35,099 bases of DNA from an uncultured archaeon (lineage in GTDB: Archaea > Aenigmatarchaeota > Aenigmatarchaeia > CG10238-14). Made by a program: the position numbers and the translations under genes. The stretch covers positions 1 through 35,099 of the forward strand of contig CAYMPD010000009.1 in NCBI GenBank assembly GCA_964392445.1. Reading direction: 5' to 3'. Below, piece after piece: positions 3,319 through 32,387 of this stretch (its first letter is position 1; every line of letters starts with the position of its first letter). The notes below the pieces were generated by a model. That model made no database searches. It had not been told where the DNA came from and saw nothing but the letters and a program-made list of their open reading frames with translations.

Positions 3319-3342
3319 ACGGCTACATGAGATTGGGGTGTA

Positions 3343-3858: not shown

Positions 3859-3859
3859 T

Positions 3860-8427: not shown

Positions 8428-8802
8428 TTATCTTACTATAATTTTTGTGGTAATTGTACTAGTTCCAGAGACGGTAAATCTCATTCCAGCACACATTGGT
8501 ACTTCACCAACCCAATAATAATCACTTCCATCGGTCTCAAAATCATTAGTAGAATCTAGAGTTTTCCAAAGATAAAATTCTGTCTCTGACCATCCTAGCC
8601 AAACACTAATAACAACGTCGGCTGTTGATTTAACAAACAAACTAAATTTTTCCCTACCAATCCAGAAAGGAGAATCAACATCATAATTGGTCCCATTATT
8701 CATTACTTGATCAAATAGAGTTTGTATTTCAAAATCAACAGCTGCGGTTTTAATTTCCTCTCTGGGAACTTCAAACTGCAATGAAATTGGTTTTCTAGCC
8801 AC
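8428..8802 (-). CDS. Beta-rich hypothetical protein, probably structural
   Basis: Overlaps the end of the large upstream gene; alternating hydrophobic strand pattern. Confidence 0.6.
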   Translation of the reverse strand: MARKPISLQFEVPREEIKTAAVDFEIQTLFDQVMNNGTNYDVDSPFWIGREKFSLFVKSTADVVISVWLGWSETEFYLWKTLDSTNDFETDGSDYYWVGEVPMCAGMRFTVSGTSTITTKIIVR

Positions 8803-11800: not shown

Positions 11801-12556
11801 TGTGTTTGAATTGGAACCCGTATCTCCATAAATCCACCATTCCCCTTCATTTCGGTCCGTATAATCAGCCCATGAAGTACCTCCTATATTTCCATCACAA
11901 GCATAATCATCGGGTTTGCCTGATTCTTGATCGACCCCAACACAGCTGCTTGGAGATTTCCATTCTCCGATATCAGTACCTGAAATATTTAAAAAAATTC
12001 TGTTATTGTTGTAGTATCCCTGATCCTCTTTTTCTTGATAAAAATAACACATATCATCTTGGTTATAGCTCACAAGCATAAAAGTAATATTATTATCATG
12101 ACTAGATAATGATGATTGAACTTTCGATGTAACATCCCAACAACCCCATATATTTTCTGAGAAGTCCGCATAATCTAATTCCTGATCAGCCGAAGGAGCA
12201 TTTGTCCAGGTCACAGTATCATCATCCCATAAATGACCGTCCGAAACTGAATATATATACAGTCTGGAACTATCCGAAAATTCTGAACCATCACAGTAGG
12301 CACAAACAGTCGCCCCAGTTATAGATTTTCCCTTCCATGGTCTCAAGGAAAATTTTATCAGTCCTCGTCTGTCCGAAGTAGTGTCTTCTTTCCAAACCGC
12401 AAACCCATAAGTTCCCCCACCATCTTGATTTACATTAGGACTATCTTCTTTAATATCACAATCTTCTAACAGAGTTGCTTTACTCTCATCAGCATTTACA
12501 TTCCATAAGGATATTAAATAGACTAATAAAAATATTAAAATAATTTTCATTTTCAT
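8795..12556 (-). CDS. Large secreted adhesin-like glycoprotein 2 (DNRLRE-like, discoidin/F5-8C-like, Ig-like repeats, beta-propeller-like segment, shared C-terminal domain)
   Basis: Start at 12556 gives signal peptide MKMKIILIFLLVYLISLWNVNA; DRRGLIKFSL motif; DT..P.I..(P)QN.T Ig-type repeats; dozens of N-x-S/T sequons; paired Cys. Confidence 0.8.
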   Translation of the reverse strand: MKMKIILIFLLVYLISLWNVNADESKATLLEDCDIKEDSPNVNQDGGGTYGFAVWKEDTTSDRRGLIKFSLRPWKGKSITGATVCAYCDGSEFSDSSRLYIYSVSDGHLWDDDTVTWTNAPSADQELDYADFSENIWGCWDVTSKVQSSLSSHDNNITFMLVSYNQDDMCYFYQEKEDQGYYNNNRIFLNISGTDIGEWKSPSSCVGVDQESGKPDDYACDGNIGGTSWADYTDRNEGEWWIYGDTGSNSNTITYVRVFYHRCELEPTNIDYVHISNSTSDWGNNLRKTSNCVCNEEIEEKNRWFEVELDEKMGRYIILNTTSSEDAGSGCSASSELDDFYEFQYFNGTAEDTASPTISIVVPQNDTTSSNELNITFGETVDWGAYSIDGNANSTTGKVNEYNTTTSLSDGVHYVTVYANDSEGNMGSSTVYWTQDTTGPVFESDPVGGAISSNMSVEISTRVKDDTSSLDLVWIESNETGSYTNYTSTGFSSGGTLNIKANLTAIDVKDDSTVALGVTNSTGKFIIITNDDLTISSETDAGSSLLTGFDFNTFLYASRYKVNSGLQKWNYTSMSLDDSIITPETVHDVYLSGNYVYTTSCYPSDGGVVYKWNSSSLSHECNGTGSDETIHLGGISDYIFSTDVDGNVTKWDKSDCSFVENWIIDNTWDMTMDTYGSYLYLVGENGTLWILDSGLDVLNVIDDGTADSSNDGYGYPVDVDSRYVYWGGKGKVQALGRGAIRSNISEDLIIDITTGEDYFTHYQPIKGWDEMVFFQFEGGTPNVHKYYATYDGRNYTRISPGTYEGAAWYFLNRDLDDNDTARIRICANDSIGNVECTNYATVEIDDSALTLSLDHPTNTTYGTSTIDLNITETGANECWYILDGGSNTTITGCQNTHLTSVSIGSHYLQVYAKDTLTGNITSDEVYFYKRESIPPLLDTTTPLNSSYTYSANGIELNISYGEYANWTAYSLNGAANVTDSNISTWNTTLSLAVGNDHNLTLYANDSWGNMNSSFIEFDVTKKSTNAINYQNGTANSSYTYYRGQDFNLTVVCDSSTNEANFTLNVTGNTENKNGTESATILGSMNNSVYPSYNYAMVSKCVADENHTVSSTNTSTIILDPGIDFYVNSTKGTILYWSFTDQTFNKEEPVGQSSTVAPLCINNTQSGQIYNISVILASNTSELYNISLWINGTHYDSENVSEVTNQTDNWVFNNTGFNSPKCFWIWANNTPGNSAPYGTWSPIIYADTKVSTGG

Positions 12557-12558
12557 AT

Positions 12559-13089
12559 TTAATCCTCTATCTGACCCCATACTGCCCACGCATCCAAAAT
12601 CTTTTGAGTACTATCACTTCTATTATAAATCCAAACTTTAAGATGTTCTTTGTAAGTTAAAGGTTCTGCAGGAGCAAATATTATTCCATAATAACTTAAA
12701 ACAGGATTCCATATGTTACATCCTAATCCAATTCCCGAAGCAACTGTGGTAACTCCGATTCCAGTACAGAGATATGTATGTACATCCTCAGGAGAAAAAT
12801 CAAAATATGTTGATTGATCTTCAAATTGAATTCTTAATTTTAATTCAGATTTATTCTTCGCTATTACAACAACTCCCACAAGGAATCCTTTTCCAGTATG
12901 ATTTATCAATTCTGATGTAGAACGGCTGTCAACGTTTTCTTCTTCGATTCTGTTGAAGTGGGTTGATATTCTTTCCCAGTAAGTTGAGTTTTTTAACGAA
13001 TCAGCATCAACTTCCGCCCTATTTCCAGAATCATCTACGATAATAACTTCTCTTTCTCCTCCGGTTAAATTTAACGAACCTAAAGCCAA
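12559..13089 (-). CDS. Beta-rich hypothetical protein, probably structural
   Basis: Tiles in the late operon; GGTGAG RBS upstream. Confidence 0.65.
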   Translation of the reverse strand: MALGSLNLTGGEREVIIVDDSGNRAEVDADSLKNSTYWERISTHFNRIEEENVDSRSTSELINHTGKGFLVGVVVIAKNKSELKLRIQFEDQSTYFDFSPEDVHTYLCTGIGVTTVASGIGLGCNIWNPVLSYYGIIFAPAEPLTYKEHLKVWIYNRSDSTQKILDAWAVWGQIED

Positions 13090-13453: not shown

Positions 13454-14062
13454 TTAACCACCTACAATACCCTTTGTTATTTTTAACAATCCCATAACGT
13501 CTTCTCTCAGATATAATTTTCCATAATATCTTGTGTGAGCTGTACGCTCAAAACCAAATAATTTTTCTAGTGATTCTAATTTCATTGTAGATTTAATATT
13601 CTTTAACTTCCCTTTTTCCTTCATACGTTTCAAAAATTGAAACACATCAAAATGGATGAACTTTCGCAGAGTTTTTCCCATCTTAATTTTATGATTCCAG
13701 GATCTCATTAATAAGACTGGGATATCATAATTTTTTCCGTTGTAAGTGACAAGCGTTGACCCTATAGGAAATTTATCTAACCACTCAATAAAATATTCAA
13801 TAATTCTTCTTTCTCCAGAAAAATCCTGTTCGTCTGAGCGGAATTGTTTTACTTTATCTTCTCCTCCTTCACTTATTATCCCTGCTCCTATCTCATATAT
13901 TGGATCATCCCCTTTTGAGATTACTTTACCTATAGGACTAGTACCAATATCAAAACCTATTATATGACCAGTTCTACCTGGAAGATTTTTTCTGTAGAGA
14001 ATTCTTGATATTCTCTCTGATTCCTTTAGTATTATTTTACTAACCATTTTAATCACTAACAA
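13454..14062 (-). CDS. RNase H-like 3'-5' exonuclease (YprB/RNase_H_2-like), possibly inactive
   Basis: GFDIGT, VTYNGKNYDIP, HFDVF, LESLE...GFER and Y..EDV motifs; the first motif has G where D-x-E is usual. Confidence 0.7.
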   Translation of the reverse strand: MLVIKMVSKIILKESERISRILYRKNLPGRTGHIIGFDIGTSPIGKVISKGDDPIYEIGAGIISEGGEDKVKQFRSDEQDFSGERRIIEYFIEWLDKFPIGSTLVTYNGKNYDIPVLLMRSWNHKIKMGKTLRKFIHFDVFQFLKRMKEKGKLKNIKSTMKLESLEKLFGFERTAHTRYYGKLYLREDVMGLLKITKGIVGG

Positions 14063-17541: not shown

Positions 17542-18507
17542 TTATGCGTCAGTAACTTTGACCAGGCACTGAGCTTTTGATTGTATGAGTTCTACATCGT
17601 ATGCTGAATCATAGTATAGATAATGGTTTGCATATCTCTTCAGATACTCATAATCCACTTTCAGTTTCTGTTTCCATGCTAAAGTCATCCAGACTTTTCT
17701 GTTTGCGAAATCTCCCACTGCTAAACACGAATGTCCCGCTGCTCCCCATGCTGTGCTGTCTGAAGTATCAGTCGCACTGTTTGCATAGGCTGTTGTGTTC
17801 TCTGTAGATAATATCTTCATTCCAAGATATTTTCCAATCTCTCCATTCAAGACTACTTCTCTTCCACCGTATTCAGCCGCATTTGTAAACTGGCTTGATT
17901 TGTGGAATACTTTCTCCTGCTCATTAGCAACAAAGAAAGCTTTCGCCTGGAATGAATTTGCATCCTTTAATTCAGCGATTGCATCTGCAACTAAATCCAC
18001 TGTTATTGTATCTCCTGTAGTTAATCCACTCGCATCAGATGCGTCTCCACCGTACAAGATGTTATCTGTTCCTGTTTCTGCTTCTGCAGCTATTGCTGCT
18101 TCGATGTTTTCCTCGTGATCCTGGACCAATGTATATCTAGCCAATTCAATTAAATTAATTGAACTAGTATCCACCAACTCTTTGGTTATTGCGATTGCTC
18201 CCAGTTTAAATGTAGGAGTGCATGTAACCGTGTTGATGTGTGTCATTTCGGTATAAGTCCTTTCAGCACCTTCGGTGTGAGAAGTTGTTATATCCAAGTG
18301 ACTTGTGGTCTTTGGTATCTTTACACTAACAGATTTGTTTGGAAGCATAATACTGGTATCTTCTCTTACAAATGGTCTGAAATATCTCTGATCCTCAGCG
18401 AACTTAACAACATCCGGACTAATTATAGTCTCTTGAATATTGGTAATATTCGTTGTAGATGTATCAGTTATATTTGCCTCTTGTAACATTCTAAGTCTTC
18501 TTACCAT
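17542..18507 (-). CDS. Major capsid protein, HK97 fold
   Basis: 321 aa after the protease/scaffold gene; V.IPK, K.G.I.ITKEL..DS.I.L, long backbone helix, GEIGKYLGMKIL and terminal A....+KV patterns. Confidence 0.85.
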   Translation of the reverse strand: MVRRLRMLQEANITDTSTTNITNIQETIISPDVVKFAEDQRYFRPFVREDTSIMLPNKSVSVKIPKTTSHLDITTSHTEGAERTYTEMTHINTVTCTPTFKLGAIAITKELVDTSSINLIELARYTLVQDHEENIEAAIAAEAETGTDNILYGGDASDASGLTTGDTITVDLVADAIAELKDANSFQAKAFFVANEQEKVFHKSSQFTNAAEYGGREVVLNGEIGKYLGMKILSTENTTAYANSATDTSDSTAWGAAGHSCLAVGDFANRKVWMTLAWKQKLKVDYEYLKRYANHYLYYDSAYDVELIQSKAQCLVKVTDA

Positions 18508-18508
18508 A

Positions 18509-19651
18509 TTAAGCCCCTCCCTGCGCTCTTAACATCATACTCTTAAGAGCTTTGTTGGCATCTATTCTTGCCTGATCTAAATCTATTTTAGAATAATCCC
18601 GTCTTTGTTTCGTACCAGATACACTTTCAAGTTTCTCTGGTTGTGATTCAGCCGCTGTAGCTGGCTCTGAATCCAGTGCTTCCATTTTCTTTAAGATTCT
18701 ATCTAAATTACCCTCAACTGCGTTTAAAGAGTCTGAAGACATTTTCTTGAGTTCTTCTGCTTTTGCTTTCCCTTCTTCTGAATCTTTGGATGAGAGAAGT
18801 CCAATATCTACTTCTTTACCAAGAATGGAATCTATTTTTTGCTCTAACTCTTTAGCCTCATATTTTTCAAGTTTGGCTTTGAGTTCTGCAACTTTCTCTG
18901 ATTCCATCTTCTCTTCCTCGTCTTCATCTTTTTTCTTTCTTTTAGCAAGTTCTCTCTCTAGATCTTCTGTGCTCATACCCGAAGTATCTTTTTTCTTGGG
19001 ATATGGATATTCTTCTTTTTCCTCGTCTTTCTTTAGTTCAATCTTTGATAGTCTCTTTTCAATTGCTTCAAGTTTCTTCATTACTGCTCCATCCACAGGA
19101 GGATTTTCGTTATCTACTTCCATAAAGTTTTCAACCTCCTTATTTGAATTAAGCATTGTTTTTCGGACCGCTGGGTCCAAAACAAAAGAACATGAACGTG
19201 TGATAGGATCTACCGCCCAGTTTCGACCTGACTGATGGTCAGCCCTGATATCGGCATCCACTGTAACTGATAATCCAATTTTTGCTCCATAGTGAAGATG
19301 TTTGGCAACGTTATCATCTATGATTTTTAAATCCCCAAAAATAGCCTTGTGTTTGGAATTCCATTTGGGATTCAATATTTCTCCTGCATAGGATTCGACG
19401 GTTCCTCCCATCGGATTCTTGTGATGGTCTTTGAATAGAGGTAATCCTTCGTATTGGTCAACAATCTTCTTCAGTTCATCAGCAGAATAATAATCCCCAT
19501 TATGAGTTCCTTCGTCAATAATAAGAGCGTTTTTAATTACATAAGGCATTTTTAATTCCTTTGGTTTAATTGTGAAATCCTTGTTTGTCAACCCTTTACT
19601 TGTTCCCAGGAAACGGGGCATCTGCATTGGCATAGAAAGCGTTATTCTCAT
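18509..19651 (-). CDS. Prohead maturation protease fused to a scaffold-like coiled coil
   Basis: G.HNG..YSADEL...G.PL..DH, GLSV and SFV.DPA motifs of the assemblin/HK97 protease fold; charged helical C-terminal half; start uncertain. Confidence 0.8.
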   Translation of the reverse strand: MRITLSMPMQMPRFLGTSKGLTNKDFTIKPKELKMPYVIKNALIIDEGTHNGDYYSADELKKIVDQYEGLPLFKDHHKNPMGGTVESYAGEILNPKWNSKHKAIFGDLKIIDDNVAKHLHYGAKIGLSVTVDADIRADHQSGRNWAVDPITRSCSFVLDPAVRKTMLNSNKEVENFMEVDNENPPVDGAVMKKLEAIEKRLSKIELKKDEEKEEYPYPKKKDTSGMSTEDLERELAKRKKKDEDEEEKMESEKVAELKAKLEKYEAKELEQKIDSILGKEVDIGLLSSKDSEEGKAKAEELKKMSSDSLNAVEGNLDRILKKMEALDSEPATAAESQPEKLESVSGTKQRRDYSKIDLDQARIDANKALKSMMLRAQGGA

Positions 19652-19700: not shown

Positions 19701-22700
19701 TTATACTCCCATTTTTAATTTTTGCTGCCAGTACCACACAGTTCTTTTAGAACATCCTAAAATCCTTGCTATCTTGGGTCTAGGAGTTGGTTCATGAAAA
19801 GTTAAAATTCTAATCTTGTCTATCTGATGTGGAGTCAAAAATTCTGTTTCCTTTCTTTCTAATTCTGAATCACTCTTTTCCATTTCCCATAGACTGGCTT
19901 TGGGATCATCCCTTCTTAATATCCATTTGCCTTTTAATTTTTTACCATTGAATTTTATCTGGATTACTTCTGTTTTCTCTTCGATTACATCAGCAGTTCC
20001 CTTATCTAAAACTTCTATCTTTGCGGGAATAGATTTGTTTGGATTAATCTCACTTTCAGGTTTGTAAGTTCCAGGCTTGAAATATTTAGAATATTCGTCT
20101 TTCTCAACGGCGTTTAAAATATCTGTGTCTACAGGATTCTTCTCGAATAAAAAGAATGGTCTATTTCCGAGTCTTAGGAAGTATTGATTAACAGGTAATT
20201 TTCTTACAACTTCTTGTCCTTTCCAAGTCAATACTGTTAGTAGGAATTTCTTACTTTCCAGATATCGGGTGTTATCAAAATTAGTAATATCCTCTTCTAC
20301 ACTCAGATAATCTTTGTCAAGGAAATATTTTCTCAATTCTTCACGTCGGCTCAATCTGTCCTCTTTACTTAATCCCTTTTCCCAGTAATTCAATTTATCA
20401 GGTACCCTCTTCTCCCATTTCCTTGGCAGCCATGGTTCACCTGATGGTGGAATTTCTTTATCGTTTATAGCATCCCTGCTTAAAATATAAGGTCTCTGGG
20501 TTTTTGGTTTCCAATATAACCATCCTGCTAATCTTCGTTCACCTTTTAAACCAGGTATAAATCTGAATACTACTCTCCCCTCCCAGGACCCATGTATAAA
20601 GAATTCATGAAAGTCAGGTTTTTGAGCGCCATGTTCAACTTCTCCCTTTCCAACTATATGAAATACTCCAGGATAATTTTTAGTTCCCCCTGGGGCTCCA
20701 GGTTCTTTTTTCTTTGGTGATGTCACTCCTTCCATGTCTAGCCATGCTTTTGGTTGTCTCGATTTTGTATTCACACGTAACGTATGTTTACCACCTTCAC
20801 GTGATTCAACTTCACCCGTTTTCAAATCCATCTTCCAAACATTGGGTTTACTGTCATATTCCTTTGCCTGTTTTAAAGTAGTGACTTCTTCCTTGATTTT
20901 ACCGTCATAAACATTTGCCAGAGTAAATCCCATTAGTTTTCCATCTGACATCTCAAATCTCATATCCCCGTGGACAGATTTTCCTCTGTAGTGATTCTGG
21001 AATACCCATCTATATTTCTTCTGGGCTAACTGGGATAGTACTTCACTATCCTTTCCTGCGGAGATGTTATAAATAATATCATCTTTTTTTCCCTCAACCC
21101 TTACATGGAATGGTCCTAAATCTAATTCATCGTTGAGTTTAACTGGATGAATTCTTTCAACTGGGAAACTAGATATCTTATCTAGTATTTCTGAAGTAGC
21201 ATAAATCGGTGGGTCAGCCCCTCCAGATAATCCATCAGCTGCCTGGGCACTTTTTAATAATATTGCATCTGGGTCCATTCTCAAAAGTCTTTTATCAGTA
21301 CAATTAATCAGTAAATTAAATCCTCCTGATGTTAACATCGTGGATCCTTCCATATCTTTTCTCTTGATGTTATAATCAACCAATCCTAACTGTCCTGGTT
21401 TTTTTGGACTAGTCCCTCTCTTTGGGATTTTCTTCTTTTCAATCCTACCAGTAGTTTGTAATACGTATTTGTGAGCCAGTTCTTTGGTAGATAACTTCTC
21501 ACTAGTTTTTTCGACAACTCTGGGAGCCCACCAGTTGAACCAGGTCTGACCAGTCTTCGGGTCTTTATACTCAGATATATCAACAAAAACAACCTTGAGT
21601 TTATCGCCCCGTTCCGCTTTGACTGATGTATTATACGTTCGCCCAACATATGGGACTCCAGAAATTGCCATATCGTAGTAGTAGGTTCCAGAGGTACCAG
21701 AAACCTTATGGACTTTGATAACTTTTCCCACGAGGTAGAGTTCCTTCTTGTACTTGATTTGTTTCTGAGATTTCTTATCTAACTCGTAAATTGAATCGGC
21801 CAATTTTAACATGGCTCCTTCAGATCCTTCTTTCCCTGAATAACTCTTCACTGCCCTGCGTAAAGAGTCCTCATTCCTAACTTTTGTATCACTGGCTATT
21901 TTAAATCGTTTTGAAGTATGAATACTTTTTAATAATTTCAATCTCTCTTCTGCGGGTAGTTTGTGTATATCTTTATCACCTAGGTACAGAATATCGTAAG
22001 CAGTAAGTCTTACTTTGTCTTCTAACTTTTCATTCTTGTGGTTAACCACAGCTGCATTATCCGCTCTTGGTTGATGTTCACCTTTAATATATAATTCCAA
22101 TTCTCCGATTAAAACCCATTTCCCTTTTTTGGATTCTATCTCTTTAACTAATGTGGGTAGATTTCCTGTAACATCACTCCCATCTTCAGTCCATATCTTA
22201 ACTTTATCACCGACCTTGTGGACCTGACATGTTATTCCGTCATATTTTCTTTGGACTATAACTCCTTTATCTTTCCATTTTTCCCACTCTTTGTTAACTA
22301 TGTTAACCAGGGAATCAATATTATACCTTTCCTTCTTCCCACGTCCATGAGTTGGTTTGAGTTGATAGAACGGTCTGAATGGCTTTATTGATTTTTGTTT
22401 TTTAGATGTTACTGCATCTTTAGGAAAACTAGGATCCTTGGTCATGTAATTTCTATAGAATGTTCTCTTGCTTTGTAAGACTAAATTACCGTTAATATCA
22501 ACTGATAAGTCATATAAATTAACAAAATTAGTGAATGGACCACACCAGGTCTGATCAGAAAGTATGTGAAGTCTGTCTTCGTAATTCTTGAAGACTTTCT
22601 TTAAGACTTGTTTTGTCTTCTCAAATATGGGCTCTTCTTCAGATGCATGCACTATCAGGTCTATATCTCCATCTGTGTCCATCCAGTTTGCCAGAGAACC

Positions 22701-24182
22701 AACCAATTGTACGAAAGGTCTTCTTAGTTTAACTGGCTTCCATCTCTGAGCGAACTCTGAAGGGGTTATTTTATCCAGTTCTTTGAATCCCCTTTGGATT
22801 CTCCAGGCGGTAATATCATTTACTTTCTTTCCAGCAGATCTATCAAGCATTACATAACCACTCGATTTAATCTTCATATATTTCTCTATGATAGGAACAT
22901 CTTTGACGTAAGATAGAAAATTGTTTAAACTTATACGAGAACCTCTCTCTGATTCAGTACCAGGGAATACAGGAAGATAACTTTTATTTTTTAATTCAAT
23001 CCTCTTGGGATCCTTAACATTAAGTTTAATTTTTTTTAGTTCCTCATCCGTCTTGTCTTCAGTATCTTCAATTCCTTTTTTCTTGAGTTTATCCATTAGT
23101 TTACCTTTGAATTTAAAGGCGTACCAGTCAATCTGATCATCCCATCTCGGTACCATTCCACGTTTAACCATCTCTTGTTTAATCCACCACATAGCATCTA
23201 TAACTGAGGCTATCCTGTATGGATGATATCCTTTCCTTTTGACTAGTGCCTGCCAGATTTGTTTGGCTCTCGCATGTAAACCGAGTAAAGAATTTTTAGA
23301 CCTGTCTTGTAACAATCCAGTTGATTTGATATGAGAAAACTTAATCAACTCCTTCTTATCCAACTCTTTAAATAGAATGATGTCTTTTTTGAACGGCATA
23401 TTCCTTTTTTCTTTCTCCTCCATTATATCTAAACACAGAGAAGTTATATTCGATTCATCCCATCCTTCAACTTGTTTTCCTTCCATTATTTTCCTGGCAA
23501 ATCTTCTTGCAATAACATTAAGCTGGTGCAGTTCTGTATCTTCCATTTCTGCCATACTTCTTGTATCGTGAGGAGTGAAATAATCTGGTCTGACATATTT
23601 CCACCAATTCTTAGATCCGTCCTCATTATATTTAGAATCTAAATCCTTGACAACTAATCCCTCACCTGGACAATCCCAACTGAAAAAATCTGGTGGTCGT
23701 ATAAATGAGATAACTTCTGAAATATTTCCATTTCCTTCCAAAGTTTGGGACAGATATTCTTTTCGTTTTCTGAGCGGTAAATCAGTTAGGTTTTCACCAT
23801 CTAAATGAAGGATATCGAATATTTTAATATTTAACTCGTTTCTCCTGTCTTTATTATGCTTAACAATATCATAGACGAGTTTGTTTCCTCCTTTAGGATG
23901 GTATAATTCACCATCAAGTACTACCTTATTTGACGAAACTGACTCAAGGACTGCATCTCTAAATCCATCAGGTAGCTGAATTTCATTACCCCAGTAGGAA
24001 AAGAACTTTACCTCATCTCCATCTTTTATGACTTCAATTCTTAATCCATCAATTTTATGTTCGAGTATGAGATCCTTTTTATCCCAAGGTAATTTTTCCA
24101 ATTCTACCAAAGAAAAAAATTCATTAGTTTCAAATCTACTCAAATCTTTATAAGGCTTGATTTGTTCTATTCTCGAAAGCAT
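19701..24182 (-). CDS. 1493-aa polyprotein: ATP-dependent ligase core, helical repeats, nucleotidyltransferase, second ligase core with OB fold, degenerate MBL fold, LigD-type 3'-phosphoesterase, second degenerate PE, HTH
   Basis: KxDG at K43 and K646, each with downstream ligase motifs III, IIIa, IV and V; GS..DxD at aa 495-508; HYRGKSVHGDMR at aa 1064-1075; C-terminal KIARILGCSKRTV. Confidence 0.85.
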   Translation of the reverse strand: MLSRIEQIKPYKDLSRFETNEFFSLVELEKLPWDKKDLILEHKIDGLRIEVIKDGDEVKFFSYWGNEIQLPDGFRDAVLESVSSNKVVLDGELYHPKGGNKLVYDIVKHNKDRRNELNIKIFDILHLDGENLTDLPLRKRKEYLSQTLEGNGNISEVISFIRPPDFFSWDCPGEGLVVKDLDSKYNEDGSKNWWKYVRPDYFTPHDTRSMAEMEDTELHQLNVIARRFARKIMEGKQVEGWDESNITSLCLDIMEEKEKRNMPFKKDIILFKELDKKELIKFSHIKSTGLLQDRSKNSLLGLHARAKQIWQALVKRKGYHPYRIASVIDAMWWIKQEMVKRGMVPRWDDQIDWYAFKFKGKLMDKLKKKGIEDTEDKTDEELKKIKLNVKDPKRIELKNKSYLPVFPGTESERGSRISLNNFLSYVKDVPIIEKYMKIKSSGYVMLDRSAGKKVNDITAWRIQRGFKELDKITPSEFAQRWKPVKLRRPFVQLVGSLANWMDTDGDIDLIVHASEEEPIFEKTKQVLKKVFKNYEDRLHILSDQTWCGPFTNFVNLYDLSVDINGNLVLQSKRTFYRNYMTKDPSFPKDAVTSKKQKSIKPFRPFYQLKPTHGRGKKERYNIDSLVNIVNKEWEKWKDKGVIVQRKYDGITCQVHKVGDKVKIWTEDGSDVTGNLPTLVKEIESKKGKWVLIGELELYIKGEHQPRADNAAVVNHKNEKLEDKVRLTAYDILYLGDKDIHKLPAEERLKLLKSIHTSKRFKIASDTKVRNEDSLRRAVKSYSGKEGSEGAMLKLADSIYELDKKSQKQIKYKKELYLVGKVIKVHKVSGTSGTYYYDMAISGVPYVGRTYNTSVKAERGDKLKVVFVDISEYKDPKTGQTWFNWWAPRVVEKTSEKLSTKELAHKYVLQTTGRIEKKKIPKRGTSPKKPGQLGLVDYNIKRKDMEGSTMLTSGGFNLLINCTDKRLLRMDPDAILLKSAQAADGLSGGADPPIYATSEILDKISSFPVERIHPVKLNDELDLGPFHVRVEGKKDDIIYNISAGKDSEVLSQLAQKKYRWVFQNHYRGKSVHGDMRFEMSDGKLMGFTLANVYDGKIKEEVTTLKQAKEYDSKPNVWKMDLKTGEVESREGGKHTLRVNTKSRQPKAWLDMEGVTSPKKKEPGAPGGTKNYPGVFHIVGKGEVEHGAQKPDFHEFFIHGSWEGRVVFRFIPGLKGERRLAGWLYWKPKTQRPYILSRDAINDKEIPPSGEPWLPRKWEKRVPDKLNYWEKGLSKEDRLSRREELRKYFLDKDYLSVEEDITNFDNTRYLESKKFLLTVLTWKGQEVVRKLPVNQYFLRLGNRPFFLFEKNPVDTDILNAVEKDEYSKYFKPGTYKPESEINPNKSIPAKIEVLDKGTADVIEEKTEVIQIKFNGKKLKGKWILRRDDPKASLWEMEKSDSELERKETEFLTPHQIDKIRILTFHEPTPRPKIARILGCSKRTVWYWQQKLKMGV

Positions 24183-24460: not shown

Positions 24461-24720
24461 TCAAATTTCACCTTCAGTATGTTTCCCCTATGTAAAGAGG
24501 AACTTAATTTCATATTTTGTGTAATTTTGGATACTAACTTTGAACCACGTGATAAACTAGATTTTAATCTTATTAGTCCTTGGGAAATTGATGAGCGGAG
24601 ATTTAATCCCCTCGTTATTCTGGAAACTAATTTACTTCCTCGTTCAATTCTAGTAACGTATGTTACTGTATCTCCTTTTAATGGAACTACATGTTCCATT
24701 TCAAGTGACTGTATTCCCAT
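24457..24720 (-). CDS. Small basic repeat protein
   Basis: Quasi-repeats, with RGSKLVS(R/K)IT twice; ATGA-type overlaps on both sides. Confidence 0.6.
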   Translation of the reverse strand: MGIQSLEMEHVVPLKGDTVTYVTRIERGSKLVSRITRGLNLRSSISQGLIRLKSSLSRGSKLVSKITQNMKLSSSLHRGNILKVKFE

Positions 24721-27700
24721 TATTGATACCTCTTTGAATCTGCTCTGAGATGTGGATTGTAAGTTCCCGCCTCTGATTGGTTGTAATTAGACCACATCCA
24801 AAAACATGTTTCATCGTTAAAAGTTAGATTAGTAAATATCCGATAATAGCTAGTATTTGTTAATTTTGTTGAACCAACATAAGTTCCATCATCATCTGCT
24901 TTGACTTCAAAAGAATAATCTTCTGTACAATTAACATCTGTGAATAGAGATACATTTAAACCATTAGTTGTGTAAGTTGGTTCTGTTACATTAACACAAA
25001 CTGATCCATGAGTGGAATTTTGACCTGTAGGCTGAACCTCTGTAGAGTTCCCATATAATGGTTGAAAACTAAGTGTTACTCCGCTGTTTAGTGATAAGGT
25101 GAAATCGGCTGATACATTAAGAAGTGAATAATCTTCTGAATAAGTATAATTTTCATTCGCAGTACAGTTAACCGAGATATTATTGTAGTCGTAAGATGGG
25201 AACCAATCCACTCCGACATCAGTTACATTTTCTATTGTACCATCAGTTTCTGAATCAAAACTGTCTCCGAAAACAGTGTGATTACCAGTTAGAGTTACGG
25301 TTTGTTGATTATTACCACAAGACCCCGTTATATTTATTGTTTGGTTTTTATGAAATTCCTGATCAGAAGTTGAACCATTAATTTCTAAACTTGCACTTGA
25401 GATTGCTTTTGAAATATCAAAGTTTAATGTAAGACCAGTGCTGTTAGATGTGTAGTTTACATTTCCTGTTATATTAAATTTATAGACCCAATAAGCGGCT
25501 GGTGATAATTCTGTATAATTAATGAAATCAGTATCAGTCTTCTTTTGAGTTCCGTTCTGGTAAATATAAAGCGTTCCTGCTGTGGAACCATAAGTCGCCT
25601 GAACTGAAGCATTTACCGTCAATCCATAAGTTCCCGACTGATCAGAAGTAGAATCATTTAACCATGCGGTAATAGGATTAGTTGAATTTTGAGTAACTGT
25701 TAGTAAGTAAGCCTTTTCTCCTGATGTGTAATTAACATTTCCTGAAGTGTTGTAAGTGTAGTTATAAACTGCCGCACCCAATTGAGTTGTATCATTTATT
25801 CCATTTACAGTACCAATTACAGTATCATTTCTATAGAGTGTAAATGTTATTGTTTGACTTGAAAACACACCCGAAGTATAATTACCTGTAGCGTTATCAC
25901 TCGCTGGATAAGTAATTGACTTATCTGAAGCAGCATCATCTATAGTCAACCAAATGTAATCTGAAGTGGAAGAATTCTGATTCATAGTTAAAATAATCTC
26001 CTCTTCCTTGAACGTGTAGTTGGTACATCCACTCACGTTGTAAGTGAAATTATAAGCCTGAGTTCCAGTTAAATCTAATTCCCCGTTCGTTATAATGGTC
26101 CCGTTTTGTGCTTTCTTGTAAGTACAATCTGAATCTCCTGAATTGATTTCAGATGCCTGATAATTTGTTTGATTTGGATAAGTTCTTGTCTGGGATGCGG
26201 TACTAGACTCATCTAAAGTTAAAGTTAAAGTTGGGGCTATTGCGTTAATTGTGTAAGTAGAAGAATCAGTACAAGATGTTACGTTTTCAGAATTAGTTCT
26301 ATTACAAACAAATGCGTATGCAGCTGCACCATATTCTATTGAAGTTGCATTTTCAGTAGCAGTTACATCTGTATCATTTCTCCATAATTTACCGTTAGTT
26401 GAATCATAATAAGATACTACACACTGTGGAGTTACACTGGTTCCATAATCTTGAGGACTAGCCTTGTTAAACGATAAAGTACAAGTTGAGCTTAATTGAG
26501 AAATATTAAATTCTCTGAAGGATGTGTTCCAATTATTGGTTGAATCATTAGCGTAAATAGTTACGTTGTGATATCCCTCTGGTAGATAAATTGTTGTATT
26601 TAATTCTGCAACCTGACCAGTGCTAACATTTATTCCTTCATCTATCGAGTATGCGCCCCAATCCACTGTCCCAGAAAATGTTATATTCAGTTCATTTCCT
26701 GAAGAAGACCAGGTATAATTAGTAGAATTAACTGGTGTATCTCCTGAAATACTGATAGGAGTGGTGTCTAGGGTAAAGTCGTACTTGTCGTTGGTTGCTG
26801 CGGTATCTTTGTTACTCAAATCAGTGTCTTGACAAGCGATATAAACTGATTTACTTCCATCAGATCCCTGATCCGAAAGAGTACAAGTTATTGATGTAGT
26901 TCCGTCTCCACTACAATCATCATCATCCGACATATCATCATAAGACTCATCCGAAGCAGAAGCCCGACAATCTCCGTTTTCATCAAGTGTCAATACGATA
27001 TCTGGAGTAGGATCTGAAGTGGTATATGGACTTGAATCATCTCCTCCTATAGAGGATAAGGTCTGAACTGGTGGAGTGGTATCTAAAGTAAAATCCACTT
27101 TTGTATTCTGAGCTGATGAATGAGAGTTGTTATAAGAATCATTACAAGCAATATATACGGACTTTGAACCATCACTACCCTGATCAGATAAGGTACAAGT
27201 TATTGATGTAGTTCCATCACCAGAACAATCGTCGTCGTCAGACATATCATCATAACTTTCATCTGAGGCGGAAGCTCTACAATCCCCATTCTCATCTAAA
27301 GTTAGCACTACATCTGGGGTAGTATCCGATGTTTTATATGGACTTGATGCGTCACCACCAACAGAACTTATAGTTATTACAGGTTCTGTAATATCAATAG
27401 TCCATACCCTTATAGTGTCTGCTGTATTAAAAGAACAATTCATATTTCCCATAGTATCATTACAACAAAAAGAAACATTATGATGATTTTCATCAACATT
27501 CGACATTTCATTATTCCAATTTCCCGTTGAGTTTGTCATTGTTATATTAGATGTTCCGTTCATAGAATATCCACACCAATCTCCATCTTCATCCAGAGTC
27601 ACATTAAACCAGATTGTCTGGGTATTATAAGTTGTATTATCTGGTTCACCTATTGTTATAATGGGAGCAGTTGCATCAGCTGTGGTATTTTCAAATTCTA

Positions 27701-28232
27701 TCTCATAAAAACCCCCATCCGAACCCGTGCCACAATCACCACTTCCTAACCAATTTTCAGCAACATCACATGCTTCCCCCGATGTAATATTTGGTATAAC
27801 TTTTAGATACCTCCCCACAGTATCGGTGATATCAATTTCATGCCAGGTATTAGGACCGCCTTCCCAACAACAATTAGAACCTATAGAAGTTTCACCATCA
27901 CATGCAGCATCATCACAAACAAAAATCTCCGAAATACCACACATATAATAATCTGAGTACCCACTTTTTCCACCAGCTACTCTAATTTTAGTAACCTTAC
28001 TGCTAACAGATAAATCTAAGATAACCCAATGTGCTCCAAGATTATGATCTTCCCATCCACCTTCCGCTCCAGTATCTCCATCGATTAGTGCTGTTGCATC
28101 ACAACCGGATTCTCCTCCTCTCGAATCTTGGACTGCTGAAGGAGAATACCAAGTAGCAAAAACCGAAGGACTAGCTAGAATAAAAGTTATAAGAGATATG
28201 AACGCAATTAAAACTCTCCAATCAATTTCCAA
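24720..28232 (-). CDS. Large secreted adhesin-like glycoprotein 1 (discoidin/F5-8C-like, Ig-like repeats, duplicated acidic Cys domain, shared C-terminal domain)
   Basis: TTG start after GGGGGAG; signal peptide MEIDWRVLIAFISLITFILASPSVFA; ALIDGD...W...HWVILDL motif; dozens of N-x-S/T sequons. Confidence 0.8.
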   Translation of the reverse strand: MEIDWRVLIAFISLITFILASPSVFATWYSPSAVQDSRGGESGCDATALIDGDTGAEGGWEDHNLGAHWVILDLSVSSKVTKIRVAGGKSGYSDYYMCGISEIFVCDDAACDGETSIGSNCCWEGGPNTWHEIDITDTVGRYLKVIPNITSGEACDVAENWLGSGDCGTGSDGGFYEIEFENTTADATAPIITIGEPDNTTYNTQTIWFNVTLDEDGDWCGYSMNGTSNITMTNSTGNWNNEMSNVDENHHNVSFCCNDTMGNMNCSFNTADTIRVWTIDITEPVITISSVGGDASSPYKTSDTTPDVVLTLDENGDCRASASDESYDDMSDDDDCSGDGTTSITCTLSDQGSDGSKSVYIACNDSYNNSHSSAQNTKVDFTLDTTPPVQTLSSIGGDDSSPYTTSDPTPDIVLTLDENGDCRASASDESYDDMSDDDDCSGDGTTSITCTLSDQGSDGSKSVYIACQDTDLSNKDTAATNDKYDFTLDTTPISISGDTPVNSTNYTWSSSGNELNITFSGTVDWGAYSIDEGINVSTGQVAELNTTIYLPEGYHNVTIYANDSTNNWNTSFREFNISQLSSTCTLSFNKASPQDYGTSVTPQCVVSYYDSTNGKLWRNDTDVTATENATSIEYGAAAYAFVCNRTNSENVTSCTDSSTYTINAIAPTLTLTLDESSTASQTRTYPNQTNYQASEINSGDSDCTYKKAQNGTIITNGELDLTGTQAYNFTYNVSGCTNYTFKEEEIILTMNQNSSTSDYIWLTIDDAASDKSITYPASDNATGNYTSGVFSSQTITFTLYRNDTVIGTVNGINDTTQLGAAVYNYTYNTSGNVNYTSGEKAYLLTVTQNSTNPITAWLNDSTSDQSGTYGLTVNASVQATYGSTAGTLYIYQNGTQKKTDTDFINYTELSPAAYWVYKFNITGNVNYTSNSTGLTLNFDISKAISSASLEINGSTSDQEFHKNQTINITGSCGNNQQTVTLTGNHTVFGDSFDSETDGTIENVTDVGVDWFPSYDYNNISVNCTANENYTYSEDYSLLNVSADFTLSLNSGVTLSFQPLYGNSTEVQPTGQNSTHGSVCVNVTEPTYTTNGLNVSLFTDVNCTEDYSFEVKADDDGTYVGSTKLTNTSYYRIFTNLTFNDETCFWMWSNYNQSEAGTYNPHLRADSKRYQ
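26832..27308 (-). repeat. Intragenic tandem duplication (period 312 nt) with a 55-aa identical core
   Basis: 27144-27308 and 26832-26996 both encode VLTLDENG...SKSVYIAC; 31 of 55 codons differ, all synonymously. Confidence 0.95.
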
Positions 28233-28947
28233 TTTTTATCTCCCCCTTCATTGGTTTAAACCATAATTCAACATCTTCTCCATCAGTCCAATGTCTTTGA
28301 AATAAATCTGTAGATCCATCCCAGTGAAATACAAAATTATATGTGTCGTCAAACCTAATTGTGGTTCTGTCTCCAAAATCAAAAGGGATAACGTTAGAAT
28401 CTAAATCTGTAACTTTAAGTCTCAATTGATTTAGTCTATTTTTATTTTCTGGTTCAAATCTAACATTTATATCTGTATGGTCCTGAAAAACAAAAATTGT
28501 TTCAATTATCTCTCCTCCATATCCAGAAGCATAATTATAAGCGTAGTATGGTGTAATTCTCCTGACAACAACCTGTTTTTTATCTTCCTGTACATCCATT
28601 GAAATCAAACTTGATTTTCTCCAGAGTCCTCTAACCCATTGGTCTTCGCCATAGGTTCGATAATAATCCAGATACCATTTATAGCAAGCAACTTTATTTC
28701 TTCCCTGGTATTGACAAACTTCATCTTTTGTTACACGATAGCGATTGAAACTTAAGCCTTGCGTTCTCTGAATAACATTAATCTCGTTTTTATCTGGGTG
28801 ATGAATTACGAATAAATTTTGGTTAGGATTAGTAGATAATAACCACCTGATATCTGATAAATATAATGTTCCTACTCCGACTACACTTATAACCAGGATT
28901 GCTCCTAAAACCTGTTTGTAGTTAATCTTATTCCAGTCTATTCTCAT
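28222..28947 (-). CDS. N-terminally membrane-anchored or secreted hypothetical protein
   Basis: Hydrophobic VLGAILVISVVGVGTLYL near the N-terminus; beta-rich body; GGAGGAGG RBS. Confidence 0.7.
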   Translation of the reverse strand: MRIDWNKINYKQVLGAILVISVVGVGTLYLSDIRWLLSTNPNQNLFVIHHPDKNEINVIQRTQGLSFNRYRVTKDEVCQYQGRNKVACYKWYLDYYRTYGEDQWVRGLWRKSSLISMDVQEDKKQVVVRRITPYYAYNYASGYGGEIIETIFVFQDHTDINVRFEPENKNRLNQLRLKVTDLDSNVIPFDFGDRTTIRFDDTYNFVFHWDGSTDLFQRHWTDGEDVELWFKPMKGEIKIGN

Positions 28948-30512
28948 ATTTTAACCTCCTCCATGAATGTTTTCTTTCCTTTAGGAAATGAGTAGAATTT
29001 TGGTACCTGGAATACGTCCAATATCTGTAAAGGGTAATACCACATGAACTTCATATCTTTGAACCTCTCCTTTCTGTCTTCATCTTTTAGTCTGTGCCTC
29101 CAGAATAATTGTTCAAATTGTTCCTGGTCTATTTTAACAGGACTGTCTAGTGAAACCTTACCCCATATATAATTACCCGATACTAAAGCCAACGGCTTAC
29201 CAATAAATTTATGGTTTTCAATTGACTTTACTATCGCAGTTTTTCTTCCCTGGGCGATTAATTTTCCACCTGGCGGATCCACATAAATTCCCGCCACAGT
29301 TTTAATCCTCTCTTTAGATAATTCTCTTCTTCCAATCTCAACATCTTTAGGAAGATTCAACATCTCTCTAGCTTCTTCCCATTTAATTACAGGTCTCCCC
29401 TCAACAAGAGTAGCACCGAGTATATTGATTTTCTCTGCAATCCTCTCATCTTTCAAAGGTAAGACATCATTCCACTGGATCTTACAATATCCATTTATTC
29501 CTTCTTTCTGCAGGACCCGTTGGAAGATTTGAGTTTCAACTATGGCTGCAAGTCTCTCTTGTAAGGGGCTGAGGATTGGATTTAGAGTTTGTTGTAGAGC
29601 TTCTGCGGTTGCTTTTGTATGAGTGCTTTCGTCTCCAAGAAGTATGTATTTAGGAACTCCAGTTACACTTACAATTTGATTGACAAAATAAGTAGGATAT
29701 TCAACAGCAGAGCTAGGAAATTGTGGGTCGTGAATTTTTAATTCATAATCATCTGTATGCGTGAAATGACTTGCTGCTTCAATCTCATCTAGTAATGAAT
29801 CCACATATTCTACGTCGGTATCTTTAGGAGTCCAGTCTTCTTTCTCTTTTAGAATTGCTTCATGAAGCGGCCATCCCTTTTTGAAGATAGCCTGGCTTAA
29901 TCCCTCCTCGATGTTTGCTAATCTTTCCATCTGATTGAATATCGGCATGATTAATGGGATTCCATCTACTTCATCCCCTATAGTCCTGAATGTTAAATGA
30001 ACAACTTCATCCCTTTCAAAGTCATGTTTCTTACCAGATGATTTATCCTCAAATGTAAATCCCACTGGCTTCCTTGAATCATCTAACTGTATTTCCTCCA
30101 TAGGGTTTCTTTTGAAATCTGTGGAGACTGGATGCAAGGGCATTAATGCAACATATTTATCCCCGCTTGAATTAGCAACCAATAACCTGAATGCGTTACC
30201 AAATATTTCTGTATCAATAGCCATCTGTCTTATCATCATGTTGAAATTCATTCCGAGATTATCATTAGCCTTAACATTCTTCAGAAATCTTTCAATACAC
30301 TCCTTAACACTGTCATTCTCAAAAACCAGATTGTATCCTCTATTTATAATTAGGTTAGCACGGATGTTAATTCCACGATGAACTAAAGGATTAGTTAAAT
30401 ATGCAGTTCTCAAATCTTCCTTTCTAATTGTAACTACTTGCGCTTTCTCCCTTGCTACAGCCGAGAATGGTACCTTGACTGTTGCCCGTTCCTGGGGCGT
30501 TAAACTTAACAT
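28944..30512 (-). CDS. Portal protein with C-terminal ASCH-like domain
   Basis: Y..NPLV.R.I..RA, D..IFGNAF, LHP, V.H......GIPL motifs and position after terL; last ~120 aa GIY.....GKLIAQGRKTAIVK...G...L...HR match the ASCH (PUA-like) pattern. Confidence 0.85.
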   Translation of the reverse strand: MLSLTPQERATVKVPFSAVAREKAQVVTIRKEDLRTAYLTNPLVHRGINIRANLIINRGYNLVFENDSVKECIERFLKNVKANDNLGMNFNMMIRQMAIDTEIFGNAFRLLVANSSGDKYVALMPLHPVSTDFKRNPMEEIQLDDSRKPVGFTFEDKSSGKKHDFERDEVVHLTFRTIGDEVDGIPLIMPIFNQMERLANIEEGLSQAIFKKGWPLHEAILKEKEDWTPKDTDVEYVDSLLDEIEAASHFTHTDDYELKIHDPQFPSSAVEYPTYFVNQIVSVTGVPKYILLGDESTHTKATAEALQQTLNPILSPLQERLAAIVETQIFQRVLQKEGINGYCKIQWNDVLPLKDERIAEKINILGATLVEGRPVIKWEEAREMLNLPKDVEIGRRELSKERIKTVAGIYVDPPGGKLIAQGRKTAIVKSIENHKFIGKPLALVSGNYIWGKVSLDSPVKIDQEQFEQLFWRHRLKDEDRKERFKDMKFMWYYPLQILDVFQVPKFYSFPKGKKTFMEEVKI

Positions 30513-30932: not shown

Positions 30933-32387
30933 TTAACGGAAAAGGGGTTTATGGCGCTTTACAAATACTTTCTCCCGAACATTGGGTCTCTTCTTAATTA
31001 CCGTTTTAAGGACTGGCTCTCTCTTTTTTCTTAATTTTGCGTCAGCCTGGAGTGCTAAAGCGATTGACCAGAAAGATTCTCCGTGCCCATCCTTTGATTC
31101 CACTGCATCTAAATTAGAATCCACTGCCATAATCTGGGATATTAATCTGTCGTCGTTTGGAAGAACTATTCTGTTTTCAGTTACAATTCTGTCGAAGTTA
31201 GCCGCCCATTTGAATTTAGATCTGGAAGTAAATTTAACTGGTTTGAGTATTCTGCTTAAGAGTCCCTGTTCTTCAAACCCCTCGAATTCCCCTCTTGTAG
31301 CGTCATACCATCCGTAATTAATATTGAAGCAATCAATGATGTCATTCAGTTTATGGACCTGCATTTTGTATTCTGTTTTATCCATGAACTCATGATAGAC
31401 TGTTGTCCATCTGTTATCATCTTTTAACTCAAATACTATTGCGTGGGTAGGATGTACTTTTTTTCCGACATCAACCCCGATTGTTCGGATGTTATCATTT
31501 GCTGCATAATGTTGTTGGACTAAATCGGAATCTACACACTTCATTATTCTTTCCCTTTTGAACCAAGAGAATTCTTCACTGAATGGTTTGCATAAATATT
31601 CCTGATTAAATATTCTAGTTCCACGTTCTTGTTTTCTCTTGATTAACTCCTCCCAGGGCATGTGTTCTTTCCAAAGAACTTCCTTATTAACAAAATTTGT
31701 TATAGCAGGTAATTCAAGAACTTCGAACCTAGACATGATATTATCATCGAAGAAAAAGTCCTTGTTTGTTTGAGGAGTACCAACCACATGAAGAAATCCG
31801 TTCTTGCTGGGCATATCCATAATCTGGGTAACAAAAATTCTATTTATTTTTTTCACTTTGACTGGGTCCAGTTTATTTTCTGGGTCTTGAAATGGGTCAT
31901 CTACATAGACTCCCGCACAATGAATTCCTCTTTTGAAAGCGAGCATACCATGAGGTTTTAAGATATATTCATTGGGATCCCCAGTCCAGGAATATTTGAT
32001 TATACTTTCCGCACGTTTTTTTAAGTCTTCAAGGCTAGCAAACCAGGGATTAAGAGATAATAAGTCTTTTAATTTTCTCAAGTGGTACGCCGCCATGTTT
32101 CTTTCATAAGAAAAATAATGACATTCTATACTACCCTTTCCTCTGAATCTCCACATAAGCCAAGCAAAATGAGCGTACAGACTAGTAGATTTAAAATGGT
32201 CTTTAGCACTGATACGAGCCGTTTTAGGATTTTTTTCAAGAAAGTCACAAGTCTTTTTGACATGTTCCCCGCCTACGAATGGTTTAAAACTTTCTGAGAA
32301 TATATTTTCAACGAAAAACCAGAAAGATTTTTGTGCCTTGCGGTCATACTCAAGTTGCTGTTTTCTTGACAACTCGTTCGGGTTCAT
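30933..32387 (-). CDS. terL: Terminase large subunit
   Basis: N-terminal ATPase (SAKDHFKST Walker A variant, VYVDDP Walker B, VVGTP motif III), FNQEYLC linker, C-terminal RNase H-like nuclease (IGVDVG, YDAT). Confidence 0.92.
   Translation of the reverse strand: MNPNELSRKQQLEYDRKAQKSFWFFVENIFSESFKPFVGGEHVKKTCDFLEKNPKTARISAKDHFKSTSLYAHFAWLMWRFRGKGSIECHYFSYERNMAAYHLRKLKDLLSLNPWFASLEDLKKRAESIIKYSWTGDPNEYILKPHGMLAFKRGIHCAGVYVDDPFQDPENKLDPVKVKKINRIFVTQIMDMPSKNGFLHVVGTPQTNKDFFFDDNIMSRFEVLELPAITNFVNKEVLWKEHMPWEELIKRKQERGTRIFNQEYLCKPFSEEFSWFKRERIMKCVDSDLVQQHYAANDNIRTIGVDVGKKVHPTHAIVFELKDDNRWTTVYHEFMDKTEYKMQVHKLNDIIDCFNINYGWYDATRGEFEGFEEQGLLSRILKPVKFTSRSKFKWAANFDRIVTENRIVLPNDDRLISQIMAVDSNLDAVESKDGHGESFWSIALALQADAKLRKKREPVLKTVIKKRPNVREKVFVKRHKPLFR

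Follow-up and report, generated by a model that had tools for sequence, protein, structure and literature searches.

A giant nucleotidyltransferase-ligase-phosphoesterase protein in the head module of an archaeon-linked virus, a candidate capsid-carried DNA end-repair kit

In a 35,099-nucleotide stretch of contig CAYMPD010000009.1 (hereafter the window), from assembly GCA_964392445.1 of an uncultured archaeon (Aenigmatarchaeota; CG10238-14), one minus-strand open reading frame (ORF) lies among viral head-assembly genes and translates without a stop into 1493 amino acids (aa). The core of its protein, labeled P0001 here, runs from a minimal nucleotidyltransferase (NTase, or NT in domain strings) through an ATP-dependent DNA ligase (LIG), comprising adenylation and OB domains, to two domains of the LigD 3'-phosphoesterase (PE) type, PE1 and PE2 (PE'), and, judged from its conserved sequence, this core is a DNA end-processing and sealing kit. 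We give an even chance to the further reading that the protein is carried in the capsid and co-injected with the genome, which it would then circularize or repair. New here are an archaeon-linked version of the architecture, which has no protease and has two ligase cores, a dead metallo-beta-lactamase (MBL) remnant, and a helix-turn-helix (HTH), together with the domain-level definition of the conserved NT-LIG-PE-PE' core. No description of this architecture was found in the literature that we searched, the coverage of which was incomplete.

An earlier reading of the same DNA, made from the letters alone (the original prediction), had described a giant end-repair polyprotein whose domains heal and seal nucleic-acid ends. 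The ORF and every motif that it quoted lie where it placed them, and its domain calls, along with the healing-plus-sealing interpretation, proved to be right. Nothing supports the term polyprotein if it is taken to mean a cleaved precursor, and that reading was rejected, as P0001 has no protease domain and processing sites are not evidenced.

Domains and catalytic residues of P0001

Searched by itself, P0001 gave no significant Pfam, NCBIfam, or PHROGs match over aa 200-620 and 940-1300, and the domains in these stretches, with the exception of aa 206-466, are visible only with family profiles. A word-indexed search returned 15 relatives, and a profile of aa 460-1493, run against 1.84 billion cluster representatives, returned 1022 matches at E<=1e-30, the best 150 of which, with lengths of 460-2320 aa, each exceed 420 bits. 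The metagenomic family is large, its multi-domain core being present in at least 150 divergent clusters at 50% identity. In a domain census of 160 members, for which HMMs were cut from the family alignment, the commonest architecture was NT-LIG-PE1-PE2, with LIG present in 156 members, PE1 in 157, PE2 in 145, NT in 116, the C-terminal HTH in 31, and the module at aa 936-1049 (MID) in 17.

Both ligase adenylation cores, including the OB-like region noted earlier behind the second, are real by several measures. Pfam DNA_ligase_A_M matches aa 35-196 (2.1e-21) and aa 627-812 (5.3e-26), each above the 26.2-bit cut-off, and PHROGs and PDB sequence searches agree on the ligase identity. Core 2 carries K646 in QRKYDG (aa 644), GELE at 693-696, YDIL, EGAMLK at 788-793, and K810-Y-K812; across 11 sequences, no variation is seen at the motif I Lys, at either Glu of motif III, at the Glu-Gly and Lys of motif IV, or at the lysines of motif V. 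A sequence search linked core 2 to PDB 3gde at 5e-12, and its Foldseek match stood at 5e-17. Our structure model comprises 1034 residues, numbered as P0001 minus 459. In it, residues 124-449, which hold core 2, can be laid over complete ligases across both the adenylation and the OB domain: 3gde at Z 26.1 (VIA), the LIG domain of Mycobacterium tuberculosis LigD, 1vs0, at Z 20.2, and the Chlorella virus ligase 2q2t at Z 17.7 over model residues 140-434. The African swine fever virus (ASFV) ligase 6imk is also among the fold matches (Z 21.2). Core 2 is a DNA-ligase-type core, closest to archaeal and eukaryotic DNA ligases, and is the universal ligase of the family.

Core 1 is 27% identical to core 2, and the two align through motifs I, III, IIIa, and IV, which in core 1 include K43 (in EHKIDG at aa 41), VLDGEL, and EGLVVK. 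Its motif V is altered, reading K195-Y-V197-R198 and not K-x-K, and no OB domain was detected by sequence after it. Among the 160 members, only P0001 and its closest relative, P0002, have a second ligase at the N-terminus; in about ten others, the additional ligase core lies at a different place in the protein. The ligase core of two relatives (P0006 and P0014) also houses inteins with LAGLIDADG endonucleases.

We read aa 467-603 as a minimal NTase of the Pol-beta superfamily, on strong evidence from the motif and modest evidence from the fold. P0001 carries hG[GS]-x9-13-DxD as G495-S496 ... D506-I-D508, beginning in VGSLAN at aa 494, and in 90 relatives G495 and D506 are 100% conserved, as are G or S at 496 and D or E at 508. 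The domain, modeled from the alignment of those 90 relatives (pLDDT 87.9), had as its top 6 of 48,161 chains six minimal NTases (MNT antitoxins, HI0073, and others), at only Z 4.2-5.2, and MNT antitoxins were likewise its best matches in Foldseek (E 0.07, probability 0.96). The sole PDB profile matches, to TdT, reached only E about 1, and their alignment falls exactly on the GGxxxG...DxD catalytic motif. No Pfam NTase family matched P0001, and a feature search of the ESM Atlas with this segment gave weak leads only (0.77-0.79, some of them NTP_transf_2).

The two PE domains were also called correctly at the outset, the first as LigD-type and the second as a PE-like domain without the His ligands, and the family profiles of both match solved LigD PE domains. 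Specifically, the PE1 profile finds 3p4h (2.4e-6) and 3p43 (1.6e-5), aligning both its N-terminal motif (QNHYRGKSVHGDMRFE at aa 1062) and its C-terminal half, which are separated by a long insertion, and the PE2 profile finds 3p43 (2.8e-9) over nearly its full length. PE2 further superposes on 3p4h with Z 12.3 (rmsd 2.7, 109 of 118 residues) and on the Pseudomonas LigD PE, 3n9b, with Z 10.7. For PE1, fold membership comes from the sequence profile only (3p4h, 2.4e-6); the domain is absent from the 50 fold-search rows shown for the 1034-residue model, among which ligases dominate, and this is no evidence against its fold. PF13298 (LigD_N) had no match on P0001, and TIGR02777 reached only E 0.087, within PE2 (aa 1388-1436).

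The LigD PE removes both 3'-ribonucleotides and 3'-phosphates (PMC3300020), and in the Pseudomonas enzyme Mn is bound by His42, His48, and Asp50, these ligands together with Arg52, His84, and Tyr88 being needed for both activities (PMC3300020; PMC3082917). In PE1, H1064, H1071, and D1073 are invariant across 72 relatives, R1075 is kept in at least 90% of them, and Q1062 is conserved; these residues include the counterparts of the Mn ligands and the phosphate-binding Arg of LigD PE. The His/His/Asp ligand positions are not conserved in PE2.

Three further segments complete the protein. In BLAST, the degenerate MBL remnant corresponds to the first half of the intact MBL domain in P0015 (4e-9) and P0003 (1e-8), whose HGHPDH has become SAQAAD in P0001, and it superposes on the N-terminal halves of MBL-fold chains at Z 8-8.9. 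The C-terminal HTH that had been proposed forms three helices in the model and, as counted above, recurs among relatives, although its HTH_23 match (8.6e-5, 22.7 bits) falls below the 24.6-bit cut-off. Finally, aa 206-466 gave no Pfam, NCBIfam, or usable ESM Atlas match, and its modules recur, by jackhmmer, in 128 of the 160 relatives, often at the extreme N-terminus.

Several of these parts would suit a head protein whose role is mainly to build the particle or bind DNA ends, for instance by capping the genome or forming an internal core, and whose enzyme folds are leftovers: the MBL remnant and PE2 are clearly dead, motif V of core 1 is altered, and PE1 has no equivalents of His84 and Tyr88. 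Set against this, the catalytic residues of the NTase and core 2, and the metal-site residues of PE1, are invariant across relatives that are only 20-40% identical, a pattern that argues for retained catalysis. We regard a mainly structural role as the most improbable of the explanations weighed here.

Fused partner domains and the head-gene neighborhood

The relatives provide the best available argument that the core travels in the capsid. In a Pfam fusion census of 25 long members, the partner domains were a D12 N6-adenine (Dam-like) methylase (15 members), Peptidase_S78_2 (the XkdF prohead protease, PF14550; nine members, best E 1.3e-30), MBL (five), a 2H phosphoesterase (four), LigD_N (two, 2.5e-5), and uracil-DNA glycosylase (UDG; one), with inteins and a C5 methylase in single or few members. 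The methylase is inserted between NT and LIG in many relatives (P0035, P0041, P0086, and P0148), and the protease stands at the extreme C-terminus, right after PE2 (residues 984-1096 of 1109 in P0016, 5.9e-24; 1650-1766 of 1769 in P0086, 2.9e-28). Presumably, the fused relatives thus read kit-protease and then capsid gene, an order that mirrors the one seen here, where the kit is followed by a 380-aa scaffold- or protease-like gene and then the capsid gene. Pfam found no XkdF-type S78_2 domain in P0001 itself. Prohead proteases work inside the procapsid, and it is this, combined with the fusion of the core to such a protease, that would make the core a capsid passenger.

The same census bears on an RNA-repair role, in which the protein would rejoin host tRNA or rRNA cut by defense ribonucleases, like T4 Pnkp and Rnl1. 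Such a role would fit the 2H domain of some long relatives, which is 2',5' RNA ligase-like, the match of core 1 to Pfam RNA_ligase (25.3 bits alone, below threshold, and 30.4 bits with the whole protein), the lack of an identified OB domain after core 1, and the ability of LigD PE to remove 3'-ribonucleotides also (PMC3300020). P0001, however, has no P-loop or 5'-kinase motif anywhere, so that an ATP-dependent ligase would be unable to join the 5'-OH ends that metal-independent RNases produce; further, core 2 is of the DNA-ligase type with an OB domain, and partner domains such as the Dam-like methylase and UDG act on DNA. RNA repair is therefore the least likely of the three uses put forward in the original prediction (the others being circularization of the incoming genome and repair of breaks made by host nucleases), and we consider it improbable.

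The placement of the gene within a head-assembly operon was confirmed by the discovery of TerL, portal, and major capsid protein (MCP) genes on the same strand. In minus-strand order, the module comprises an HTH protein, the terminase large subunit (TerL), a 118-aa gene, the portal, genes of 241, 1170, 87, and 92 aa, P0001, the 380-aa gene, and MCP. The ATG of P0001 overlaps the stop codon of the upstream 92-aa, Ig/MG2-like gene (ATAATG), and a GAGGA box precedes the start. The link drawn earlier to MuF-type minor head proteins was not borne out, with no MuF match in Pfam or PHROGs to the whole of P0001 or to its segments.

A search for the same architecture beside portal or MCP genes found the linkage in the window and in six metagenomic loci, with the archaeal virus ANMV-1 as the exception; a portal or capsid gene adjoins the family gene, or lies within a few kb of it, in seven of these eight contexts. 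In three loci (L001, L002, and L010), whose giant proteins are 37-42% identical to P0001, the giant gene is followed by a gene of ~370-400 aa and then by MCP; in two others (L011 and L012), both a ~385-aa gene and MCP are encoded downstream in the same orientation, at a distance of 3-5 kb; and in L005, a distant member comes directly after a Mu-type portal. The ~380-aa proteins align mutually, one counterpart being a DUF2213 protein (1e-21), and combine a globular N-terminal part, with invariant His, Asp, and Asn, with a highly charged C-terminal half. The 380-aa protein of the window itself had no Pfam or PHROG match. These proteins are probably the scaffold or protease-scaffold of this virus group.

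The ANMV-1 protein (AJP62006.1 in KP703175.1) is the one member in the phage collection, where it is annotated only as 'ATP-dependent DNA ligase'. Like P0001, it has the order NT-LIG-PE1-PE2, with 31.6% identity over 88% of aa 470-1440; unlike P0001, it is 866 aa long and has no second ligase, MBL remnant, or HTH. In this virus, which bears a diversity-generating retroelement, the region at 3200-5800 of KP703175.1 places a 'MutT-like phage hydrolase' before the member and a 1166-aa hypothetical protein after it.

Proposed action, rival readings, and known systems

In the capsid-carried reading, the protein would be built into the procapsid during head assembly, as suggested by the position of its gene and the protease fusion of its relatives, and would exit the capsid with the genome to act at once on the incoming linear DNA. 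There, the Mn-dependent PE1 would strip 3'-phosphate or 3'-ribonucleotide blocks, the Pol-beta-type NTase would add or fill in one or a few nucleotides, and core 2 (K646) would seal the DNA, so that the genome becomes circular or breaks introduced by host nucleases are closed. Nucleic-acid binding or positioning would fall to PE2, the HTH, and the dead MBL remnant. The additional core 1 (K43), which only a small clade possesses, may be used for the second strand or for nicks of another type.

This reading draws on a concept developed for other systems, that of the polyvalent proteins, which have been proposed to be packaged and injected and to protect incoming DNA (Iyer et al. 2017, PMC5512222). 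As described in that paper, polyvalent proteins resemble P0001 and its relatives in being very large and multi-domain, in lying beside virion packaging genes, and in having shuffled effectors (N6A methylase, peptidase, NTase, 2H, and MBL). Across the family, the domain census and the gene contexts likewise reveal shuffled effector domains in one polypeptide beside packaging genes; and the head-module position, translational coupling, protease fusion, and shuffled partner domains together match the polyvalent concept. P0001 differs in having no MuF, ArdC, or relaxase anchor and in its link to an archaeal host. Further, NT-LIG-PE-PE' is not among the hubs listed in PMC5512222, where a term search returned neither LigD nor XkdF and found 'ligase' only three times, the passages shown being on RNA ligases.

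Several observations weigh against a packaged, catalytically active P0001. First, Pfam and PHROGs identify no protease, MuF, or other known capsid-targeting domain in it. Second, a head operon is expressed late, and such timing would serve an enzyme active in the cell while DNA is being packaged just as well. Third, the ANMV-1 member sits in a plus-strand late block, far from the annotated prohead protease and outside the portal-capsid interval, such that linkage to capsid genes is not universal. Fourth, in the profile alignment to 3p43, the PE1 positions equivalent to His84 and Tyr88 hold a variable Q/E (Q1143) and a near-invariant W1147, and as both residues are essential in Pseudomonas, the activity of PE1 could differ or be lost. 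Finally, the NTase has weak fold support (Z no higher than 5.2; Foldseek E 0.07), and at D543 and D558, its candidates for the third carboxylate, only about 62% of relatives have an acidic residue.

The first three of these points would equally suit the same enzymology without packaging, in which a late cytoplasmic enzyme makes replicated DNA ready to be packaged: it would close nicks and gaps and tidy the ends found in concatemers or produced by terminase. On that account, the location of the gene within a late structural operon would reflect timing only. The fusion to a prohead protease in nine of the 25 long relatives is, however, hard to explain for a cytoplasmic enzyme, and the frequent fusions to Dam-like methylase, MBL, 2H, and UDG fit the early, injected counter-defense proteins described in PMC5512222. 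We judge the unpackaged enzyme unlikely, though it deserves serious consideration.

With respect to known repair enzymes, the closest parallel in domain logic is bacterial LigD (POL-PE-LIG), which acts with Ku and which similarly combines an ATP-dependent ligase, 3'-end healing by a PE-superfamily domain, and a nucleotide-adding module in one polypeptide; the His, His, Asp, and Arg of its PE metal site are conserved in PE1. The differences are substantial. The nucleotide-adding module of P0001 is a Pol-beta-type minimal NTase of ~100 aa and not an archaeo-eukaryotic primase (AEP)-type primase-polymerase, for which no P0001 segment had a Pfam or NCBIfam match; the PE is duplicated, with the second copy lacking the metal ligands and with the His84/Tyr88 equivalents replaced; the ligase core resembles archaeal Lig1-type enzymes more closely than it does the LIG domain of LigD; and the gene is viral and belongs to a head module. 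Hence, where the original prediction invoked the healing and sealing set of LigD and non-homologous end joining, the domain logic stands, and the comparison is an analogy only, as there is neither an AEP polymerase nor Ku. Membership of LigD itself was rejected for want of a POL domain and Ku.

The archaeal stand-alone LigD-PE proteins (CkoPE, 3p4h, and MbaPE, 3p43; PMC3082917) are similar in their eight-stranded beta-barrel, on which PE2 superposes at the Z of 12.3 given above, and in the Mn-binding His/His/Asp plus Arg that PE1 retains; unlike them, the PE domains of P0001 stand in tandem inside a 1493-aa protein. A different kind of likeness is found in a eukaryotic virus.

African swine fever virus particles carry Pol X, a ligase, and an AP endonuclease for repair of the viral genome on entry. 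The likeness to the kit lies in a particle-borne Pol-beta-family enzyme together with an ATP-dependent ligase; the differences are that the ASFV enzymes are separate proteins, serve base-excision repair, and include no PE, with homology only at the level of shared superfamilies.

If P0001 is packaged, the virus would bring its own machinery for DNA break repair and circularization into the cell. This would be of greatest consequence where the repair capacity of the host is minimal, as with the archaeon of this bin, at roughly 1 Mb. More broadly, tailed viruses of archaea and bacteria might widely carry a capsid-borne, Ku-independent end-joining kit, often with a methylase, which upon injection would reseal or circularize the DNA faster than restriction enzymes, CRISPR, exonucleases, and other host nucleases destroy it; this generalization is tentative, and we lean somewhat against it. 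Were the kit reading true, it would represent counter-defense by repair and not by inhibition, of which the literature searched yielded no published description, and 'repair of the cut' would join modification, inhibitor proteins, and DNA-end protection among counter-defense strategies. The protein also presents a LigD-like logic assembled from different parts, with a Pol-beta NTase in place of the AEP polymerase and without Ku. The family offers compact natural fusions of NTase, ligase, and 3'-end cleaning that could be useful enzymes.

Host bin and other features of the window

The contig belongs to a 1.2-Mb bin that is 94.9% complete. For its small-subunit (SSU) rRNA, the archaeal model (746+500+37 bits) outscores the bacterial model (961 bits), and the genomes of its relatives measure 0.3-1.3 Mb, which indicates a very small archaeon, by inference DPANN-like. 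That SSU rRNA (G000:C19:1-1452) lies at a contig end, and its archaeal match is split around model positions 828-830. The giant gene was sought in 60 related small archaeal genomes, including four from the same genus, and found in none; the element is hence sporadic. No terminal repeat was found in the 41.7-kb contig, which may be proviral, may come from a free virus that was binned together with its host, or may be mis-binned. No Ku (PF02735) was detected in the 1.2-Mb bin, this contig included, with a positive Bacillus subtilis control, and the bin holds one ordinary ligase-like ORF, on contig C1. Small stand-alone PE-like ORFs of ~125-180 aa occur in relatives of the host (G005:C44:3601-3753, G013:C8:18437-18583, G060:C81:14729-14881, and others); they match the C-terminal half of the PE profile and are cellular LigD-PE-type ORFs in very small archaeal genomes.

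Table 1. Coordinates of P0001, its domains, and neighboring head genes (positions in the window unless a locus is named; aa, residues of P0001)
Feature	Coordinates	Strand	Basis
Whole ORF, P0001	19701..24182	-	stop-free translation, 1493 aa
Ligase core 1, aa 1-205	23568..24182	-	Pfam PF01068 2.1e-21
aa 206-466, no family or fold match	22785..23567	-	sub-modules recur in relatives (jackhmmer, family set)
Minimal Pol-beta-superfamily NTase-like domain, aa 467-603	22374..22784	-	motif G495-S496 ... D506-x-D508 and model
Ligase core 2, adenylation and OB, aa 604-935	21378..22373	-	Pfam 5.3e-26; structure matches
Degenerate MBL remnant, aa 936-1049	21036..21377	-	BLAST to MBL domains of relatives
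PE1, LigD-type 3'-phosphoesterase domain, aa 1050-1232	20487..21035	-	family profile and invariant columns
Linker between PE1 and PE2, aa 1233-1302	20277..20486	-	mostly helical in model
PE2, PE fold without His/His/Asp metal ligands, aa 1303-1440	19863..20276	-	profile and superposition
C-terminal three-helix HTH, aa 1441-1493	19704..19862	-	sub-threshold HTH_23; three helices in model
Terminase large subunit (TerL)	30933..32387	-	phrog_38 1.7e-20
Portal protein	28944..30512	-	Pfam Phage_portal 3.1e-13; phrog_9232 2.4e-23
380-aa gene, scaffold- or protease-like by position	18509..19651	-	between giant ORF and MCP gene
Major capsid protein (MCP), HK97 type	17542..18507	-	phrog_1357 2.7e-15
~370-400-aa gene just upstream of MCP gene in relatives' loci	L001:14316-15512; L002:10969-12111; L010:6999-8102; L012:13390-14547; L011:15340-16497		

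Beyond the features in Table 1, the window contains no tRNA. Two other large minus-strand genes, one of 1170 aa between the portal and ligase genes (24720-28232) and one of 1264 aa (8795-12589), had no Pfam or PHROG match. In the structural block downstream of the capsid gene, an RNase_H_2 / PolB-exonuclease-like gene (13454-14062, minus strand; Pfam 5.9e-12) may be another nucleic-acid enzyme among the virion genes. Laminin_G_3 and beta-helix proteins are encoded near the capsid genes in the loci of relatives.

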